A stretch of 31,427 nucleotides of DNA from Savitreella phatthalungensis (lineage: Eukaryota): NCBI GenBank assembly GCA_051599415.1, contig AP039698.1, positions 496,001-527,427 of the forward strand, in the 5' to 3' direction. The notes under the pieces were generated by a model. It did no database searches. It was not told the origin of the DNA and worked only from the letters and a program-made list of their open reading frames with translations. Positions 10,759 to 31,427 of this stretch are shown here, piece after piece (position 1 is the first letter of the stretch; every line of letters begins with the position of its first letter). Both the position numbers and the translations under genes were made by a program.

Positions 10759-10845
10759 AGGTCGCTGCCGGACTCGAACCGACGTCAGCCGGAAAATTCT
10801 GAAACAATCAGAACCGACTGTGCTAACCACCTACACCAAGCAACC
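10759..10845 (-). tRNA. tRNA-Gln(CTG) with 14-nt intron (10794-10807)
   Basis: Acceptor stem GGTTGCT/AGCGACC, D arm GTGT..GCAC, anticodon stem GTCGG/CCGGC with TT-CTG-A, intron after position 37, T arm GTCGG-TTCGAGT-CCGGC, followed by a T6 run. Confidence 0.93.
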
Positions 10846-21892: not shown

Positions 21893-22494
21893 ACGATGGC
21901 TAGGTTGCGCGAGACGCCGACCCTGAACGACTCGTCCTCTCCGGATTCCACTCCTGACGAACTAGTCTTGTGCCGTAATCAGGAGTTTAACTTTTGCTTG
22001 CACGACGTCTGTGGTGACGCACATTTTGATTTTTTTTACCCACCAGAAATCCGATATGATGTGGCATAAATCGGGCCATCATTGATGTGGCTGAAGTGTG
22101 GCGTTGCTGGCATCGATCGCTGGCTCAGGCTGACTGACCCCGATCTCAAAATTCGAGACTGAATCTTTGGTCATCCTGCTAGCGTCCGAACAAGAATTCC
22201 TCTCCACAATCAGCAGAATTATCTTCTCGCCTGTTCCGCAAGCCAGACATCTCCCCAAGCAATCGTTCAGCTTATAGCCATCTCTGCTCCTCAAAATATA
22301 TCAGCACAGTGACGACAATTACGTCGATGTGTATGGTCATGAGCGCGCTAAAGAAGCGCGGTAAAGAGTAGTCCAAGGACCTATATTTACTCTGTTCATA
22401 ATCCCAAACTGTTTTCAGCAACGCCAGATTATGGCCATGAAGTTACGGATGAAACACTGCATGGCATCCCTAAGTTTAAGTCAGCAATTAGAGG

Positions 22495-22731
22495 TGGACC
22501 TAACTCCATCCCAAACTGCAGAACCAAACAGCGCTCCACCAATTTGGACCTGACTGCAAACCAAACTGCAAAACCATACTGCAGTGCTTCAAAAATTTGG
22601 ACCTAACTGCATCCCAAACTGTAGCTGTGAACCTAACTGCAAAAACCTAACTGCAGAAACCAAACTGCAGTGACCAAACTGCAAAACCAAACTGCAGCAC
22701 ACAGCAAACTCAGACCCAATTGCGTCCCAAA
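22495..22731 (+). repeat. Degenerate CC(A/T)AACTGCA minisatellite marking the start of the subtelomere
   Basis: Roughly a dozen irregularly spaced copies of ccaaactgca/cctaactgca. Confidence 0.85.
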
Positions 22732-23050
22732 CTAGATATATTCCACGCGTTTGACCCCGTTGGTTTGACCTGCGTTAGATAGGGGCAATTTTTTCGCTTG
22801 ACGAACGGCGCAATGCACAAAAATTTGGCGCCGTTGGTCGTGCATCTGACGCCATTTTGGCGCCGTTTGTCAGCAGGGCCGGCAAGACAAAATTTGCTCC
22901 TATCTGGAGGCCCTCAGTCAAATAATTTGATCACCAAAAAAGTATCAATTTTGGCGCCGTCGGTCAAAAATAGGTCACGTTTGGCGCCGTTGGTTCTATT
23001 TGATCACCAAAAAATATCGAAATTGGCGCCGTTGGGAGAAAATAGATTAC
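22732..23050 (+). repeat. Leader of array 1 (diverged direct duplicate of 26922-27245)
   Basis: Shared blocks CTAGATATA, TTTGACCCCGTT, TTAGATAGGGGCAATTTTTTCG, ACGGCGCAATGCACAAAAATTTGGCGCCG and TCCTATCTGGAGGCCCTCAG. Confidence 0.92.
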
Positions 23051-23870
23051 TTGGCGCCGTTGGTTTTGTGCATCCACACAGAATTGGCGCCGTCGGTCGA
23101 CCACATAGCACTGAATTGGCGCCGTTGGTCAATCACATAGTAATGATTTGGCGCCGTCGGTCAACCACATAGCAGCAAATTGGCGCCGTCGGTTTTGTGC
23201 ATCCACACAGAATTGGCGCCGTCGGTCGAGCATCCTAGCACAAATTTGGCGCCGTCGGTCAATCACATAGCAGTGAAATGGCGCCGTTCGTTCTGTGCAT
23301 CCACACAGAATCGGCGCCGTTGGTCAACCACATAGCAGTGAAATGGCGCCGTCGGTCAAGCACCTGACCAAAATTGGCGCCGTTGGTTTTGTGCATCCAC
23401 ACAGAATTGGCGCCGTCGGTCGAGCATCCTAGCACAAATTTGGCGCCGTTGGTCAATCACATAGCACTGAATTGGCGCCGTTGGTCAAGCACCTGACCAA
23501 AATTGGCGCCGTTGGTTCTGTGCATCCACACAGAATTGGCGCCGTTGGTCAAGCATTCCAGGGCAAAATTGGCGCCGTCGGTCAATCACATAGCACTGAA
23601 TTGGCGCCGTCGGTCAATCACATAGCACTGAATTGGCGCCGTTGGTCAAGCACCTGACCAAAATTGGCGCCGTCGGTTTTGTGCATCCACACAGAATTGG
23701 CGCCGTCGGTCGAGCATCCTAGCACAAATTTGGCGCCGTTGGTCAATTACATAGCAATGATTTGGCGCCGTTGGTCAATCACATAGTAATGATTTGGCGC
23801 CGTTGGTCAATCACATAGCACTGAATTGGCGCCGTTGGTCAACCACATAGCACTGAATTGGCGCTGTTGT
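23051..23870 (+). repeat. Array 1: TTGGCGCCGT(T/C)GGT core with variable spacers, 31-33 bp period
   Basis: About 26 regularly spaced cores (about 31 counting those in the leader). Spacer types include tttgtgcatccacacagaa, caatcacatagcactgaa, cgagcatcctagcacaaat and caagcacctgaccaaaa. Confidence 0.95.
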
Positions 23871-24299
23871 TCTTTGCACCTACTAGGTCACACTAGTAAT
23901 AGATTGTACTAGTAGTAGGTGCTACTAGATTGTAGTAGTACTAGGAGGTAGTACTAGGTTGTAGTAGTGCCAGGTCGGCCTCGGTCGCAGTCAGTGCTAG
24001 GTAGTGCCAGGTGGCAGTACTCTGCAGTGCCAGGTCGTACTAGTAGGTGGTGGTACTAGTAGTAGGTCGTAGTGGTGGCAGGTGGTGGTACTAGTAATAG
24101 GCCGTGCCAGGTCGCGCTAGGTAGTACTAGGTGGTGGTGCTAGGTCGTCGCCGAGTCGGTCCGTTTTTCGCACCTACTAGGTGCTAGTCCTAGGTGGTAG
24201 TAGTAGCTGGTAGTAGTACTAGGTGGTGGTGCTAGGTCGTAGTAGTACTAGGTCGCAGTAGACCTAGGTCGTAGTGGTGCCAGGTCGCAGTAGGTCAAA

Positions 24300-24348
24300 C
24301 ACGTGTGGGTGCCATTTGGCTCGTTGACCTGAATGGCACCCACACGTG
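24300..24348. repeat. Perfect 17-bp inverted repeat with 15-nt spacer (copy 1)
   Basis: CACGTGTGGGTGCCATT-tggctcgttgacctg-AATGGCACCCACACGTG. Confidence 0.95.
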
Positions 24349-24707
24349 ATTTGTGTCGTCACGTGACCAGGTCCAGGTCGGCCTCGGTCGCAGTCGGTGC
24401 TAGGTAGTGCCAGGTCGTACTAGCAGGTGGTGGTACTAGCAGGTGGTGGTACTAGTAGTAGGTCGTAGTGGTGGCAGGTGGTGGTACTAGTAATAGGCCG
24501 TGCCAGGTCGCGCTAGGTAGTACTAGGTGGTCGTGCTAGGTCGTCGCCGAGTCGATCTATTTTCGCACCTACTAGGTGCTAGTCCTAGGTGGTAGTAGTA
24601 GCTGGTAGTAGTACTAGGTGGTAGTCCTAGGTCGTAGTAGTACTAGGTGGTGGTGCTAGGTCGTAGTAGTACTAGGTTGTAGTAGTGCCAGGTCGCACTA
24701 GGTCAAA

Positions 24708-24799
24708 CACGTGTGGGTGCCATTTGGCTCGTTGACCTGAATGGCACCCACACGTGCAGGTGCCATTTGGCTCGTCGACCTGAATGGCACCCACACGTG
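24708..24799. repeat. 17-15-17 inverted repeat copy 2 (24708-24756) plus partial copy 3
   Basis: Identical to copy 1, followed by ggtgccatt-tggctcgtcgacctg-aatggcacccacacgtg. Confidence 0.92.
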
Positions 24800-25422
24800 A
24801 TTTGTGCCGTCACGTGACCAGGTCCAGGTCGGCCGCGGTCGCTGTCGGTGCTAGGTAGTGCCAGGTGGCAGTACTCTGCAGTGCCAGGTCGTACTAGTAG
24901 GTGGTGGTACTAGTAGTAGGTTGTCGTGGTGGCAGGTGGTGGTACTAGTAATAGGCCGTGCCAGGTCGCGCTAGGTAGTACTAGGTGGTCGTGCTAGGTC
25001 GTCGCCGAGTCGATCTATTTTCGCACCTACTAGGTGGTACTAGTAGTAGGTTGTACTCGTACTAGGTCGTAGTAGTACAAGGTGGTAGTACTAGGTTGTG
25101 GTGGTAGGTGGCAGTACTAGGCAGTAGTGGTACTAGGTTGTCGCCGAGTCGATCATTTTTCGCACCTACTAGGTCGTACTAGCAGTAGGTTGTAGTGGTA
25201 CTAGGTGGTGGCACTAGTAACAGGCCGTAGTAGTACTAGGAGGTAGTAGTACTAGGAAGTAGTGGTACTAGGCAGTCGTCAAGAACCTGTCTTCTGAAGG
25301 TTGTAGGATGCTGCCGACACGATCGCACGGTTCTGTGGCGCAGCATGTGGCTGGTGAAATTTCGGTCCCGCAACCGATTTTGCTATCGGGCGAGCGCCAG
25401 CTAGGCGCTACACCGGTGGCCG

Positions 25423-25697
25423 CCAGCAGCAGCAGCAGTGGCAGCAGCAGTGGTGGTAGTAGCAGCAGCAGTGTCAGCAGCAGCGGCAGCAGCAGTGGCA
25501 GCAGCAGTGGCAGCAGCAGTAGCAGCAGCAGTGGCAGCAGCAGTGGCAGCAGTAGGAACAGCAGTAGGAACAGCAGCAGTAATGAATGCAGCAGTAGTAA
25601 CGGCAGCAGCAGTGAATGCAGCAGTAGCTGTAGTAGTGGCAGTATTAGAAGGAGTGAAGGGAATGTCAGATGTAGTCAGTGTGGTAGCAGCAGCAGC
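25423..25697 (+). repeat. Degenerate (AGC/AGT/GGC/GGT)n trinucleotide tract
   Basis: agcagcagcagtggcagcagcagtggtggtagt... It produces poly-Ser and poly-Ala pseudo-ORFs. Confidence 0.9.
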
Positions 25698-26304
25698 CAT
25701 CACGGTCAATAAAGCACAGACTAGATAGTAGAATGAGGCATACAAGGAGCACAGACAGGCACAGACACAACGTAGTGGACAGATTACAGTGCATGACAGT
25801 GGCAAGTACATGCGACAGTGCACAAGGGAGGCAATAAGAGCAAGTGAGAGTGAATTAGAGTGAGTTGTGGAGGAAAGGGCACAGCACAGCGCCAGCCACA
25901 GATTTGAGAAGCAAGGGTGGTGGAAACAGTGCAGGCCATATGACAATGGAGTCAATTGCAATCAATTGATGTTGCACAACAAGCGCCAGTGCCAATTACA
26001 GACAGAGGAAAGAGAATGCAGGCAACAGGGTAGGGCCAGGGCCAAGCAGGTGGTGTTTATAACAAGCAGAGACAGGGTCAGTGGCAGGGCCAGGTGACAA
26101 ATGACAGTGACAAGTGCAGGAATGACACATCAAGTGACAGTGCAGTTTGAACAGATGACATCATTCAGCCAATGGCAGTGCAGTAATGAAACAAGGTACA
26201 GTGCAGGCAACAAGTGTGTGATACACAACAGGGGTTGACAGGTCAACAGCAATTGGCAGATCAAGGGTTTGACAAATGTTGGGTCACAGAGCGGGGCAGT
26301 GGGT

Positions 26305-26530
26305 CAGGTGACGGTGCAGGCAACAGCATTTGCCAGATGATGGTGCAGGTAATGGCATTTGACAGATGTGTTGCAGGTAAAGGCGGTTGACAGATGTGTT
26401 GCAGGTAAAGATGTTTGACAGGTGGCAGTGCAGGTAACAGCATTTGACAAGCGACATGCAAGTAACAGCATGTGACAGGTGACATGCAGATAACAGCATT
26501 TGGCATTTGGCAGGTGACGGTGCAGTTGCA
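26305..26530 (+). repeat. Degenerate 28-29 bp tandem repeat (TGCAGGTAACAGCATTTGACAG...)
   Basis: TGCAG(G)-like starts at 26315, 26344, 26372, 26400, 26429, 26457 and 26485. Confidence 0.8.
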
Positions 26531-26860
26531 GATGAAACAGATGGCAGGGCGATTAACAGTTGGAATGTGGGGAGCAAATGGCATGGGATGTGTCAGGTAA
26601 ACAGGAGGAAGAATGTCAGATAGAGGAGGGATTGAGAGCAGGAGTACAGCAGAGAGAGGAGCAGCAAGAAAACAGCAAGATGATGATGATGTTGAAGATC
26701 AGCAGGGACATATGCGTGCGGACAAGTGCAGTATAGCAAGGCAGCAGGCGTTATCAAAGAAACAAGGTTAACAAGCAAGCGAGCGAGCGAGCAAGCAAGC
26801 GAGCAAAGCGGAGCAAGGGTTGGGGCATTGGTTAGTTTGACGGCGGTTAGTTTTTGTGGG

Positions 26861-26920
26861 TCAGGGTGAGGGTGAGGGTTAGGGTTAGGGTCAGGGTCAG
26901 GGTCAGGGTCAGGGTCAGGG
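26861..26920 (+). repeat. Interstitial telomere-like tract of 10 hexamers (6 TCAGGG, 2 TGAGGG, 2 TTAGGG)
   Basis: Read directly from the sequence. Same polarity as the terminal telomere and abuts leader 2. Confidence 0.95.
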
Positions 26921-26921
26921 T

Positions 26922-27245
26922 CTAGATATATGCCTCGCATTTGACCCCGTTTGTTTGACCTGGTTTAGATAGGGGCAATTTTTTCGTCTGACAAACGGCG
27001 CAATGCACAAAAATTTGGCGCCGTTTGTCGTGCATCCGACCTCAAATTGGCGCCAAAATGGCGCCGTTTGTCAGCGGGGCCGGAAAGATAAAATTTGGTC
27101 CTATCTGGAGGCCCTCAGAAGAATAATTTGATCTCCAAAAAATATCAATTTTGGCGCCGTTTGTCGAGTTTTGGTCATGTGAGGCGCCGTTTGTCAGGCA
27201 CCTGACCAGCAAATTGGCGCCGTTTTTTGGAAATAGATTGCCTGT
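26922..27245 (+). repeat. Leader of array 2
   Basis: Colinear homology to 22732-23050, starting at CTAGATATA. Confidence 0.92.
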
Positions 27246-28465
27246 GCGCCGTTTGTTCTGTGCATCCATTTGAAATTGGCGCCGTTTGTCAGGCACCTGA
27301 CCACCAAATTGGCGCCGTTTGTCAAACACCTAGCGAGGATCTGGCGCCGTTTGTTGTGCATCCATCTGAAATTGGCGCCGTTTGTCAGACAGCTGACCAC
27401 CAAATTGGCGCCGTTTGTCGTGCATCCATTCAAGATTGGCGCCGTTTGTCAGACAGCTGACCAGCAAATTGGCGCCGTTTGTCAAACGCCTAGCAACGAT
27501 CTGGCGCCGTTTGTCAGACAGCTGACCAGCAAATTGGCGCCGTTTGTTGTGCATCCAATTGAGATTGGCGCCGTTTGTCAGACAGCTGACTACCAAATTG
27601 GCGCCGTTTGTCGTGCATCCGATTGAGATTGGCGCCGTTTGTCAGACAGCTGACCACCAAATTGGCGCCGTTTGTCGTGCATCCATATGAGATTGGCGCC
27701 GTTTGTCAGACAGCTGACCAGCAAATTGGCGCCGTTTGTCGTGCATCCATTCAAGATTGGCGCCGTTTGTCAGGCAGCTGACCACCAAATTGGCGCCGTT
27801 TGTCAAACACCTAGTGAGTACTTGGCGCCGTTTGTCGTGCATCCATTCAAGATTGGCGCCGTTTGTCAGACAGCTGACCACCAAATTGGCGCCGTTTGTC
27901 AAACACCTAGTGAGTGCTTGGCGCCGTTTGTCGTGCATCCATTCAAGATTGGCGCCGTTTGTCAGACAGCTGACCACCAAATTGGCGCCGTTTGTCAAAC
28001 GCCTAGCAACGATCTGGCGCCGTTTGTCAGACAGCTGACCAGCAAATTGGCGCCGTTTGTTGTGCATCCAATTGAGATTGGCGCCGTTTGTCAGACAGCT
28101 GACTACCAAATTGGCGCCGTTTGTCGTGCATCCATATGAGATTGGCGCCGTTTGTCAGACAGCTGACCAGCAAATTGGCGCCGTTTGTCGTGCATCCATT
28201 CAAGATTGGCGCCGTTTGTCAGGCAGCTGACCACCAAATTGGCGCCGTTTGTCAAACACCTAGTGAGTACTTGGCGCCGTTTGTCGTGCATCCATTCAAG
28301 ATTGGCGCCGTTTGTCAAACACCTAGTGAGTGCTTGGCGCCGTTTGTTGTGCATCCATTCAAGATTGGCGCCGTTTGTCAGACAGCTGACCACCAAATTG
28401 GCGCCGTTTGTCAAACACCTAGTGAGTGCTTGGCGCCGTTTGTTTTGTGCATTGCGCCGTTTGTC
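27246..28465 (+). repeat. Array 2: TTGGCGCCGTTTGT(C/T) core with variable spacers, 31-33 bp period
   Basis: About 38 phased cores (about 45 counting the leader). Spacers include agacagctgaccaccaaa, gtgcatccattcaaga, aaacacctagtgagt(a/g)c and aaacgcctagcaacga. Confidence 0.96.
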
Positions 28466-28610
28466 GAGAACCCTGTCCTTTCTGGGTTGCAAGGTTGTGT
28501 TTTGCAGCAAGTCTCACCACCCCGCTGGACTTGACCAAAAGAAAGTCATGTTGATGTTCTGACAAGACAGTGTGAGAGCTTTGCACGTTTTGTTATGGGA
28601 TTATGAATGA

Positions 28611-29290
28611 GTGCTCGCAAGACTCTACAGCATCATTGTAGAACACTGACAAGACTCTGCAGCATCATCGGCAAGCACTTGCAAGACACTACACTATCAA
28701 GAGCGAGCATTTGCCAGACACTGCAGCATGATTGACAATCACTCGCCGGACGCTACAGCACAATCAATGATCACTCGCAAGACACTATAACACGATCAAC
28801 AATCACTCGCCAGACACTACAACACGGTCGACAATCACTTGCTGGACACTGCAGCATCATCGACGGACACTTGTTGGACTCTGCTGTATCATTGACGGGC
28901 ACTTGTTGGACTCTGCAGCATCATCGACGGGCACTCGCCGGACTCTGCTGTATCATCGACAAGCACTCGCCGGACACCGCAGCGTCATTGACGGGCACTC
29001 GCTGGACGCTGCAGCAACATCGACGGGCACTCGCTGGACGCTGCAGCAACATCGACGGGCACTCGCCGGACACTGCAGCAACATCGACGGGCACTCGCTG
29101 GACGCTGCAGCAACATCGACGGGCACTCGCCGGACACTGCAGCAACATCGACGGGCACTCGCCGGACACTGCAGCATCATCGACAAGCACTCGCCGGACA
29201 CTGCAGCGTCATTGACATGCACTTGCTGGACACTACAGTCTCATTGACAGGTACTCGCCAGACTCTGCAGCAATATTGACGGGCACCTGA
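28611..29290 (+). repeat. Array 3: 32-bp tandem repeat CACTCGCCGGACACTGCAGCAACATCGACGGG, about 21 copies
   Basis: Near-perfect copies at about 28995-29180, increasingly degenerate toward both edges. Confidence 0.93.
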
Positions 29291-29425: not shown

Positions 29426-31248
29426 CTAGCAAGCTGGTGTGGCGCGCCTGAGTGAGCCCTCTGATTCGACAAAGAGAGACCAGAGAAGCAAGGTCGCCAG
29501 ACTTGCAGGCAGAGACGAAACCCAGAATCGGAGCTGGCGAAGGTGCGAGATAAAGCTGGTGCCGTTCACCAACATTGCTATCACCTCCTCCTCAGAGCTC
29601 GAGTAGTGGTTCAAGGCACGCAACAGATGAGGATCCTGTCTGCTATACAGGCCCCAGAGAAGCGGCAGCACCGTGTCCCCAAGCACGCAGCTGGTTGCGT
29701 CCTGCTGCTTCCGCGCCAGATAGCATATTTTCATCGCATTGTCGCACACATAACACACAGCCATCTTGTGGTCGTACTTTGCAGCATCCATCTTGTCGGC
29801 CACAAAGCGCCGGTGTCGGGCACAGCTGTCCTTGCTCTCAGCACGGCAATCCTCGTCAAACGCCAGGCAGACGGCGCACTTGCCATTGTAGGCAGTGAGG
29901 AAGTCCACCATCTTTTGCAGCGCGTAGTCAAGTCTGCTGCGCTCAGACTCTGTCAGCTGGGCAAAAGACAGCCTGGCCTCTGTCTGGCCATTTGTTGACC
30001 TCAGCAAGACAGCTGCAGAGTGTACCGTGCCAGGTGCTTGCGTTGCTGAGTTTGGTGTGGCCGGCGCTCGACCTGCGCCTGTCGTGTGCAACCCGAACCC
30101 AAGGGATGCGTTCGGCGTCGACGGCACTTGGCTGTGAACCTGTGGCAACGCCATCAGGTCTCCAGGGCTGCGGCGCACACCTGAGTGTTCCCGTCTCACG
30201 GTCCTTCGTGATGTGTTGGACGGAGTGGGAGAATGTGTTCCAGGGTAAGGCCATGTCTGGTCCAGTGCCGCTCGCGCTGGCCCGTTGCGCTGAGGTGCTG
30301 ACAGCCGACTGTATCTTGGGACACCTGGTCTGGGACTGCTGTACAAGGGCAACGGGCTGCTGCGCACATCAGAGGTCTCTCGGCGACGTTTTGGTGACTG
30401 TCTGTCACAAGGTGGCTCCAGTGGGAGGTCATTGGTAGGGTGCACGAGCACACTTGTGGCGTCTGTGAGATCTGTGACCGGGGGCGCCGCGTTGTCTGCC
30501 CCGACGCGCTCGATCGGCGCCATTGCAAGCTGGGAGGCTGTCAAGATTGGCTGGGAGTTCTCGTTGATCTGAGACTGGCAGAGGTCACACAGCCGACGGC
30601 CTGCATTGATGCAAGTCGCTCGTCTGCCATCAAGAAAGTCCTGCATTACTGCCGTCCGGCACTCGACAGCACTCAGCAGCCTTCTCATCTGCAGCACAGA
30701 CTGGATCCGTAGCAGGCCCGCAGTGTCTCGGTTCTCGTCCTCAGGAGGCAGGAAACCTCCCGACGGCATCAGAACATATGACCACGCACCCTTGCCATCG
30801 CGCCCTGCCCTGCCAATCTCCTGTGCGTAGTCGATCAAAGAGTACGGCGCGTTGCTGTGCACAACAAGCCGGATATCTGCACAGTCCAATCCGGTGCCGA
30901 GGGCGGTGGTGCCCACGATAACGAGTCTCGAGGAATCCTGCCGCCATGCAGCGAGTATCCGCTCGCGTTGGATATGGTGGACGCTCCCGTGGATGAGCGG
31001 CCAGCTGTTCTCCTCGGCCAGCTGTGTGGCTGCATGCCTTGTCTTGCAGATGACCATGGCACGATCGTCGGGCTTGATCCTGTGGCGGTCGAGCAGGCGC
31101 AGCACTGTCTCAGACACAAGCTTGGAGGTGAGCCTCTGGACGGTCTCGACATTCAGGCTGATGTCCTTGCGGATGGTTTCGTGGTCCCGGAAGACAATTG
31201 TTGGCATGGGGTGGTCTCGCAACACCTTCTCTGCGAGGTCATTCTGCC
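29426..31248 (-). pseudogene. Telomere-linked RecQ helicase (TLH family), 5'-truncated by the telomere
   Basis: Motif IV (RAMVICKTR), motif V (VGTTALGTGLDCADIRLVVH), motif VI (YAQEIGRAGRDG), RQC-type Zn cluster (CR..C..CDLC) and a Cys-rich C-terminus. Walker A and DExH motifs are absent, and the frame is open up to the telomere junction. Confidence 0.9.
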
Positions 31249-31360
31249 TTAGGGTTAGGGTTAGGGTTAGGGTTAGGGTTAGGGTTAGGGTTAGGGTTAG
31301 GGTTAGGGTTAGGGTTAGGGTTAGGGTTAGGGTTAGGGTTAGGGTTAGGGTTAGGGTTAG
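31249..31360 (+). repeat. Telomere (TTAGGG)18 + TTAG
   Basis: 112 bp of perfect TTAGGG, with the G strand running toward the contig end. Confidence 0.98.
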
Positions 31361-31427
31361 CTGTTCTCGCAAAGGCAGAAAGTAGTCTTAACCTTAGCAA
31401 TACGTAACTGAACGAAGTAGATACAAG
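31361..31427 (-). other. Untrimmed Oxford Nanopore native barcode (NB06 as recalled) plus ligation adapter; sequencing artefact
   Basis: 31364-31387 is the reverse complement of GACTACTTTCTGCCTTTGCGAGAA. 31388-31395 is the TTAACCTT barcode flank. 31396-31419 is AGCAATACGTAACTGAACGAAGTA, the reverse complement of the ONT adapter. Confidence 0.93.

Follow-up and report, generated by a model that had tools for sequence, protein, structure and literature searches.

The first descriptions of TLH and Y' raised a question that still stands, namely why helicase genes are found at the tips of fungal chromosomes and why their inner borders are sharp. The window studied here, a stretch of 31,427 nt of Savitreella phatthalungensis (AP039698.1, assembly GCA_051599415.1, positions 496,001 to 527,427), contains two modules, each consisting of a leader and a repeat array, close to a TLH helicase gene (Table 1). 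The host is a Taphrinomycete fungus, whose HIS4 has its best named relative in Taphrina deformans (63%). A recombinase domain predicted in the helicase gene of the element suggests that the element grafts itself onto chromosome ends. Of the two modules, the second is a coding copy of this element in truncated form and the first a non-coding derivative.

Table 1. Parts of the window, in positions counted from its first nucleotide.
Feature	Position	Strand	Remarks
Degenerate family-B terminus (CTATAT start) and short CCTAAC/CCAAAC-type repeat array	22381..22731	+	Broken at 22732, where the family-A element begins
Family-A terminus, copy 1, subfamily A1	22732..22744	+	Fixed first nucleotide of the element
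Leader 1	22732..23050	+	Tip copy of the core motif, inverted motif pair ~70-110 bp in, irregular first units
Array 1	23050..23880	+	26 cores (23050-23870), period 31-33 bp, four spacer types
GTAG-rich repeat block and tail	23880..25420	+	Makes up the body of non-coding (non-autonomous) forms in both families
Common subtelomere core	25421..26857	+	Common to most chromosome ends
Variant telomere repeats TCAGGG/TGAGGG/TTAGGG	26858..26921	+	Old chromosome end that served as target for the second element
Family-A terminus and leader, copy 2, subfamily A2	26922..27240	+	Inverted motif pair ~26990-27029
Array 2	27240..28467	+	38 regular cores (27240-28440), three spacer types, higher-order alternation
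Second, ordinary 32-bp minisatellite, 19.8 copies	28653..29286	+	Downstream of the TLH stop codon
TLH gene 3' fragment (Helicase_C and C-terminal part)	29426..31248	-	Faces the centromere
Telomere, TTAGGG x 18.7	31249..31360	+	Added within the TLH reading frame

At least one of the window's subtelomeric parts is matched at 52 of the 56 chromosome ends, mostly the block 25421..26857, and intact relatives of the degenerate family-B terminus (22381..22731) are present at 24 ends. The ordinary 32-bp minisatellite (28653..29286 type) accompanies TLH at 4 ends.

The two leaders, which a first-pass annotation had placed at 22732 and 26922, are confirmed, with a mean column identity of 85% over the aligned stretch, and each is followed, as proposed there, by cores containing GGCGCC (26 in array 1, 38 in array 2). 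The mean core period is 32.3 bp in array 1 and 32.1 bp in array 2. GGCGCC occurs 79 times in the window, with only 6 occurrences in the 28.7 kb outside the two modules. At its close, array 2 repeats 23 bp of the leader (26990-27012) exactly and in inverted orientation (28443-28465). The description of a core held constant, with spacers drawn from a small vocabulary, is right: core identity across spacer types reaches 0.91 (array 1) and 0.97 (array 2), and spacer identity is 0.87-0.89 within types and 0.53 (array 1) or 0.42 (array 2) between types, the shuffled-spacer control giving 0.44 and 0.42, respectively. The vocabulary comprises four types in array 1 and three in array 2 rather than about four to six, and the spacers are not free in sequence, as had been supposed, but conserved within each type, with types common to different chromosome ends. 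Their order, described as shuffled, is indeed indistinguishable from random in array 1 by the test of same-type neighbours (6 vs 7.2 expected by shuffling), but array 2 alternates non-randomly, with no same-type neighbours against 11.7 expected and none of 10,000 shuffles as low.

A leader followed by repeat and spacer units at a fixed period had suggested a CRISPR-like framing, or a locus of processed small RNAs with one 32-nt guide per unit. Such a locus is hardly credible here, and the framing had to be given up. The spacers are not mostly unique, as there are only 13 distinct ones in 25 units and 14 in 36. Because spacer types, three to four of them, recur within and between ends, and because array 2 alternates non-randomly, the arrays are not CRISPR-like. 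The Rfam scan returned one tRNA and nothing else, so none for the arrays; a scan of 13 long ORFs gave no cas gene (10 match housekeeping or helicase families, 3 match no family), and no effector gene lies nearby.

With few unit types, a higher-order arrangement and a copy number differing between ends (45 vs 28 units at near-identical ends), the arrays are variant-repeat minisatellites. One could accordingly take the whole structure for an ordinary minisatellite of this kind in a subtelomeric block that is spread by homologous recombination only, with chance homogenisation or some host DNA-binding protein keeping the core constant. The higher-order alternation and the differing array lengths speak for this, as does the alignment of some spacer types across their first 8 bases; compound helicase-associated repeats are also described for Magnaporthe in the available text of PMC1635262.

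Termini and joints were counted in one assembly with 56 chromosome ends. Family A, to which both leaders of the window belong, has 10 copies at 7/56 ends, with the start nucleotide identical in 10/10 copies behind 9 unrelated flanks. The sister terminus, family B, has 28 copies at 24/56 ends, and the CTATAT start is intact in 18/28. The termini of both families have their first 13 bases in common. Searching 12.7 Mb for this shared terminal 13-mer gives 19 exact matches, which without exception (19/19) lie within 9 kb of a contig end and point outward (reversed control: 1), so that 0/19 point inward genome-wide, and no internal copy of the element was found in the assembly. A genome-wide search finds the leader solely at chromosome ends, to which it had correctly been tied beforehand. 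The claim of a structured cis-acting module linked to TLH also stands, since the leader is present at all four ends bearing the TLH of the window (Fisher P 1e-4 over 56 ends; P 8e-4 with two identical ends counted once). The start of the leader is very probably a defined end of an element. A recognisable terminus is absent from 27/56 ends, and the C2-internal and C10 ends possess the same joint and the same truncation; ordinary recombination thus spreads blocks as well. In a comparison of positions 26500-27250 with contigs of four sequencing runs, in which the variant-telomere tract was passed over, the likely source sample contained the leader, and an A1-type leader was present in two runs of another study.

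At the joints, the commonest next base of the reconstructed empty site is C in 11/12 independent cases (background C 0.22; P 6e-7). A looser search for empty sites (n=16) gives 12 C, one tie and 3 A (P 1e-5). At the C20 left joint the empty site clearly continues with a base other than C, and at three joints in degenerate repeats C is found at only about half of the candidate sites. New copies are nested within older ones, e.g. family A at 22732 inside a family-B terminus, and in the nested cases examined the distal remainder of the target is never seen behind the new copy. Homologous recombination cannot yield one donor nucleotide against unrelated flanks, nor a bias towards C; the ordinary-minisatellite explanation therefore covers the turnover of the arrays and leaves the leader unexplained. 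As a full account it is very improbable, and already largely refuted by the terminus and joint data.

The telomeric helicase that had been noted beside the arrays is real, albeit merely a 3' fragment cut by the telomere; the recombinase and DEAD parts of the window's TLH gene were lost through the telomere addition. TLH is an SF2 helicase of RecQ type (Helicase_C and DEAD; first family-profile matches RECQ5, BLM and RecQ), and telomere repeats are found no more than about 5 kb away from each of the 5 strong copies. The assembly contains no intact TLH: the four family-A copies are cut 5' by telomeres, the longest being additionally frameshifted, and the family-B copy breaks off within the DEAD domain. 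The latter, on C22, lies directly behind a family-B terminus and array, is 48-52% identical to family-A TLH and contains a C2H2 finger (C-x2-C-x12-H-x4-H). A full HMMER scan yields 200 relatives. Relatives show the architecture OrsD, DEAD and Helicase_C and a conserved domain ahead of the helicase; a word-index search of longer proteins with the N-terminal TLH part gave no match.

Tyrosine recombinases (YRs) possess the catalytic set R-K-(H)xxR-H/W-Y. The conserved domain of TLH contains this set in order (R307, K341, R426, H457, Y466), and these residues, together with E310, are nearly invariant across 110 aligned relatives; the first His of HxxR is unconserved. The predicted structure of the domain (pLDDT 80) is matched best by an archaeal Xer in VIA (Z 12.7, rmsd 3.0, 172 aligned). 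Nearly all of the best 27 VIA rows are YR, topoisomerase IB or Ndc10 chains, with Z of 12.7, 11.9 and 11.6 for Xer chains, and unrelated rows begin at 6.6. Foldseek with the same model gives YRs throughout among the matches listed (best E 0.01). Identity to YRs amounts to 9-15%, and neither Pfam (TLH domain, 34 members) nor PDB profiles provide a YR match at sequence level. On this structural model, the TLH domain has the fold of a YR catalytic domain, fused to a RecQ helicase. TLH is the likely maker of the joints.

Host repair would be a different maker. The terminus would then be a recurrent break or template end (nick, hairpin or stalled fork), to which broken chromosome ends would anneal through 1-3 bases before being lengthened by break-induced replication; TLH would either nick the donor or do nothing. 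The overlaps at the joints do amount to 1-3 bases (C, CT, CTA), as in microhomology priming, the leader folds into a 12-bp stem (z about -2.5), and intact TLH is missing from the assembly. In Pyricularia, the accessible part of PMC8381367 describes the duplicative capture of subterminal DNA after telomere failure. However, the donor nucleotide is constant in 10/10 family-A and 18/28 family-B copies, the stem is situated ~70 bp inside the element and away from the joint, and the same 13-bp end is kept by two families 50% apart in protein, with the catalytic set conserved. Joints made by host repair are therefore an unlikely explanation.

YR elements commonly move via circles, and a two-ended YR element might produce a similar picture. 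A circle, with the terminus joined to telomeric repeats, would insert as a whole at C, and the distal target would be lost afterwards through breakage and healing at internal telomere repeats; alternatively, a single ancestral type of element would have had A as its right and B as its left terminus. The orientation of the genes agrees with the latter, as TLH-A faces toward its own terminus (inward) and TLH-B away from its own (toward the telomere), as left and right ends would. The array motifs of A and B, in element orientation, are alike at 7/8 bases (P 0.05 with one variant of A and 0.33 with the second). Ready breakage and healing of internal telomere tracts is reported in the part of PMC8381367 that was available. 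Against two ends stand the missing inward motifs (0/19) and internal copies, and a target remainder kept in no nested case, which leave this explanation improbable, more so than host repair.

The reading we favour is a one-ended telomeric DNA element: leader and array probably represent its inner end, joined to chromosome ends by the element's own recombinase-helicase, with the array as a subterminal minisatellite, perhaps of binding sites. The element would have a single defined end and the telomere as its opposite boundary. TLH would cut at the terminus and join it to a C in another chromosome end, whereupon helicase and replication would copy or swap all DNA out to the telomere, so that the old tip would be replaced. 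The 32-bp array, with a period of about three helical turns, may form a row of subterminal binding sites, which would explain a held core with drifting spacers, its length and order presumably turning over through ordinary slippage and unequal exchange. That TLH itself is the protein bound is a more tentative suggestion. Tip, inverted and array copies of the motif vary together between A1 (3 copies) and A2 (7 copies), which is a single contrast. The first-pass annotation was thus sound in its cis-acting module tied to TLH and chromosome ends, erred in the CRISPR-like framing, and missed the precise element end and the YR domain.

Several known classes of mobile DNA were compared. Cryptons and Starships have two defined ends, target DNA on both sides, internal insertion and no fused RecQ. 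They resemble the present element in YR chemistry, which is proposed here, and in lacking a long target duplication, but are rejected as all 19 terminal motifs point outward and no target remainder is found. No Pfam match to DUF3435 or Phage_integrase is present in the TLH domain or its relatives, with Atlas leads of only 0.88 and 0.87. Helitrons insert between A and T and have a CTRR 3' end, with a hairpin a short way within. On the minus strand the family-A end reads CTAG, but it is flanked by A, T or G; there is no CTRR in family B, and the stem is located ~70 bp into the element. Helitrons encode an HUH Rep and a PIF1 helicase, in place of which a RecQ-type helicase and an upstream domain with a predicted YR fold are found here. 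Telomeric non-LTR retrotransposons (MoTeR, FoTeR) are rejected likewise, with 8 genomic RVT_1 matches and none at ends bearing an A or B terminus; the one match near an end (C23 right) is at an end without either.

No report of a YR in TLH was found in the literature searched, mostly open-access, and the one integrase passage found in the available texts concerns a retroelement. We tentatively propose that TLH genes encode the transposases for a so far unrecognised class of mobile DNA in eukaryotes, one-ended telomeric elements whose only end, (C)CTA, is linked by a YR to a C of a chromosome tip and in which the fused RecQ helicase carries the exchange to the telomere. In Savitreella, non-coding derivatives would then constitute the subtelomere itself, most ends would owe their 'X-like' core to the element, and the array of phased 32-bp units would serve as a recognition platform co-evolving with each TLH subfamily. 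If this is true, a selfish element, and not host repair alone, accounts for part of the turnover of subtelomeres in many fungi, and bacterial one-ended telomeric transposons have a eukaryotic counterpart with different chemistry. About 38 copies of the two related termini are available in this genome, together with a rule for the target (C), a candidate for the enzyme and a catalytic residue identified by name, which opens the question to direct experiment.

Among known systems, TLH region I of Magnaporthe oryzae (Rehmeyer et al. 2006, PMC1635262) shares, according to the available text, a RecQ-type TLH at several ends, adjoining compound repeat arrays, frequent terminal truncation and a sharp inner boundary. 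The Magnaporthe TLH regions start within a CCTAAC unit, at either its first or its second C, and their TLH faces the telomere, as in family B here, whereas family A faces inward. The boundary is treated as a domain border in that text, which names no enzyme or mobility, and Savitreella differs in having two families, non-coding derivatives and many nested joints. The same source describes for X/Y' of Saccharomyces cerevisiae a core that almost every end possesses; distal to this core, on the far side of telomere-like repeats, a helicase element may be present as well. The TLH-containing regions of Fusarium oxysporum (Salimi et al., 10.1101/2024.02.27.582403) are alike in zinc fingers, a conserved 'TLH domain' of ~250 residues before the RecQ motifs, and units that occur at ends singly or in arrays, separated by telomeric repeats. 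No function is assigned to this domain in the accessible text, and our YR domain is equated with it by position and architecture only. Closest in working are the one-ended telomeric transposons of cyanobacteria and Streptomyces (Hsieh et al., 10.1101/2024.11.13.623437), for which the available text gives one specific end, a telomere boundary, conserved orientation and telomere replacement. The Savitreella element likewise has one specific end, the telomere as other boundary and a fixed orientation. It works alike and is not a member, since those transposons are bacterial, with DDE (TnsB-type) transposases and protelomerase or terminal-protein telomeres, and the element described here is eukaryotic, with telomerase-type repeats and a predicted YR fold joined to RecQ.

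The window lies at the right end of contig C10 of an assembly (G000) of 12.7 Mb in 27 contigs, in which 56 chromosome ends were examined; this number includes the two sides of a telomere-to-telomere join inside C2. The window's genes up to position 21961 are fungal housekeeping genes. Among named relatives of the HIS4 protein the best is that of Taphrina deformans (63%), which makes a Taphrinomycete the most likely host. In C2 (G000:C2:311053-311250), telomere tracts stand head-to-head and link two chromosome-end structures, probably by an assembly join or else by a true end-to-end fusion. The ends C16 left, C17 left, C23 right and C27 left have no match to any subtelomeric part of the window and carry telomeres on other sequence. 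A reverse-transcriptase ORF of 1172 aa (G000:C23:222036-225554; stretch L087:695-4213) is located ~4-7 kb from an end without the common subtelomere. Non-telomeric bases lie distal to the telomere at window 31361-31427 and at the outermost positions of C1 and C8; they resemble untrimmed long-read adapter and barcode. The GTAG-rich block of the window itself repeats with a 458-bp period, and long palindromic units with a 43-bp period are present within it (24299-24350, 24707-24799).

Additional features located in the window
Feature	Position	Strand	Source
tRNA gene	10759-10845	-	Rfam
Decayed family-B terminus	22381		
11-6-11 inverted repeat, decayed family-B copy	22468-22495		

Both leaders (22732 and 26922) and both arrays of the first-pass annotation are confirmed in place. 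Array 1 comprises 26 cores with a mean period of 32.3 bp, array 2 comprises 38 (mean 32.1 bp). The proposed repeat/spacer grammar is real, since cores from different spacer types are 0.91-0.97 identical, whereas likeness across spacer types is 0.53 and 0.42, compared with 0.44 and 0.42 after shuffling. The freedom ascribed to the spacers does not hold: they are 0.87-0.89 alike within a type, total only 3-4 types per array, and follow a non-random order in array 2, with no same-type neighbours against 11.7 expected. Identical types are found again at other chromosome ends, and two ends that agree in leader, joint and helicase fragment differ in unit number (45 vs 28). This matches the turnover of a variant-repeat minisatellite and not that of CRISPR spacers; the feature is real, the CRISPR analogy wrong, and a CRISPR-like function of the arrays scarcely credible.

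The family-A leader occurs in ten copies at 7 of the 56 ends and nowhere else in the genome. All ten have an identical starting base in CTAGATATAT, and the DNA before them comprises nine unrelated flanks, which are unique DNA, variant telomere repeats, subtelomere core or a leader already present. A sister terminus, family B, starts with CTATATATATTCC and is present in 28 copies at 24 ends (18 intact starts, 10 decayed). The 13-mer shared by both families has 19 exact matches genome-wide, every one at most 9 kb from a contig end and oriented toward the telomere. The leader is thus very probably the end of an element. A plain minisatellite spread by homology alone cannot yield such a fixed end and is very improbable; ordinary recombination clearly contributes to the spread, because the C2-internal and C10 ends have joint and truncation in common and 27 of 56 ends show no recognisable terminus.

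Family-B leaders (e.g. stretches L062, L053, L086) contain an inverted repeat of 11-6-11 geometry, similar to that of Xer dif sites; its arms are telomere-like and it lies ~85-115 bp inside the terminus. Of 21 copies in which 9 or more bases pair, 17 have an identical 6-bp middle and one (C22 left) has its exact inversion, which could reflect recombinase action or hairpin-loop inversion. In the non-coding family-B copies L062 and L053, ~700 bp between array and GTAG block contain, by eye, A-box and B-box motifs of tRNA-like kind, which are possible TFIIIC boundary sites. Near the right end of C24, a family-B stub consisting of the first nine bases only interrupts variant telomere repeats; it starts 9 bp from the telomere, which caps it directly.

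An empty site is readable where the flank is repeated elsewhere in the genome. Its commonest next base is C in 11 of 12 independent joints (P 6e-7, background 0.22), although three of these joints have degenerate flanks, where C occupies only about half of the candidate sites; a looser search gives 12 C, one tie and three A among 16. At C26:5461-5587 a family-A terminus is joined at a C into the leader of the previous copy, after 114 bp. In nested cases the new copy extends to its own telomere, and no remainder of the old copy is seen behind it. From the fixed start, the C at empty sites and the unseen remainder, the joints are exact on the donor side and require a match of about one base in the target; they also look one-ended. 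Host repair, with priming by 1-3 bases on a template end that is fixed, is an unlikely source of these joints. A two-ended insertion, later trimmed at internal telomere repeats, is a still more doubtful one.

The claimed tie of leader and array to the telomere-linked helicase (TLH) is borne out: at all four ends with the window's TLH, the gene is followed downstream by a family-A leader and array (P 1e-4, or 8e-4 if two identical ends count as one). These four TLH copies are cut by the telomere on their 5' side, at three different places. The remaining family-A copies, module 1 among them, are non-coding forms that run into the GTAG-rich block and common subtelomere core or terminate in telomere. 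On C22, a family-B terminus and array lead directly into a second TLH, 48-52% identical and facing the telomere; each terminus family therefore has its own TLH. As the assembly contains no intact TLH, the elements may rely on copies that other strains carry, or else be relics.

The longest family-A TLH copy (C8) still includes the region that precedes the helicase. In a full HMMER scan 200 relatives are found; the long ones scanned possess DEAD and Helicase_C in 23 of 23 cases, and OrsD too in 15. Across 110 aligned sequences R307, E310, N318, R324, K341, P374, R426, H457 and Y466 are invariant or nearly so. Tyrosine recombinases (YRs) have the active-site order R-K-R-H-Y, in which the conserved residues of the TLH domain also fall. 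Sequence searches of Pfam and PDB with this domain give no match. A model built from 81 of the 110 sequences (pLDDT 80) was compared with 48,161 chains, and Xer, XerA, XerH, integrases, integron integrase, Cre and topoisomerase IB match best (top Z 12.7, rmsd 3.0, 172 residues; first unrelated match 6.6). The matches listed by Foldseek are all YRs, none below E 0.001. Fold and conserved residues of the TLH domain are those of a YR; recombinase activity is only predicted.

In the mechanism judged most likely, TLH would bind near the terminus, cut, and attach the end of the element to a C within a different chromosome tip; helicase and replication would then copy or swap DNA out to the telomere, the old tip being lost. 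Under YR chemistry the enzyme would remain 3' of the target C, in agreement with the one-base rule. Putative subterminal binding sites would be provided by the array, as its period is close to three helical turns, the core motif is also present as an inverted pair ~70-110 bp from the terminus, and the motif copies at the tip, in the inverted pair and in the array covary between subfamilies A1 and A2, a single contrast. An A1-type leader from another study shows this pattern too. The window would have received a B element, then an A1 element joined into it at 22732, then, at 26922, an A2 element that was attached to the old variant telomere and afterwards cut back by a new telomere at 31249.

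By architecture and place the S. phatthalungensis element is a TLH element; CRISPR, Helitron, Crypton/Starship and telomeric retrotransposon were considered, and it belongs to none of them. No report assigning a recombinase to TLH was found in the literature searched, which covers subscription journals poorly. TLH-driven one-ended movement would, if demonstrated, represent a new class of eukaryotic mobile DNA, a reading to which we give somewhat less than even odds. According to the accessible parts of the respective reports, Magnaporthe TLH regions contain compound repeats and have an inner border that falls sharply on either the first or the second C of CCTAAC (PMC1635262), Fusarium has arrays of TLH units with a 'TLH domain' without assigned function (10.1101/2024.02.27.582403), and in Botrytis TLH adjoins a nuclease-less 'Helitron-like' element (10.1101/2022.03.07.483234). 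Closest in way of working are, as far as the accessible text describes them, the one-ended telomeric transposons of bacteria, whose enzymes are of the DDE type (10.1101/2024.11.13.623437), whereas the TLH domain has a YR fold.
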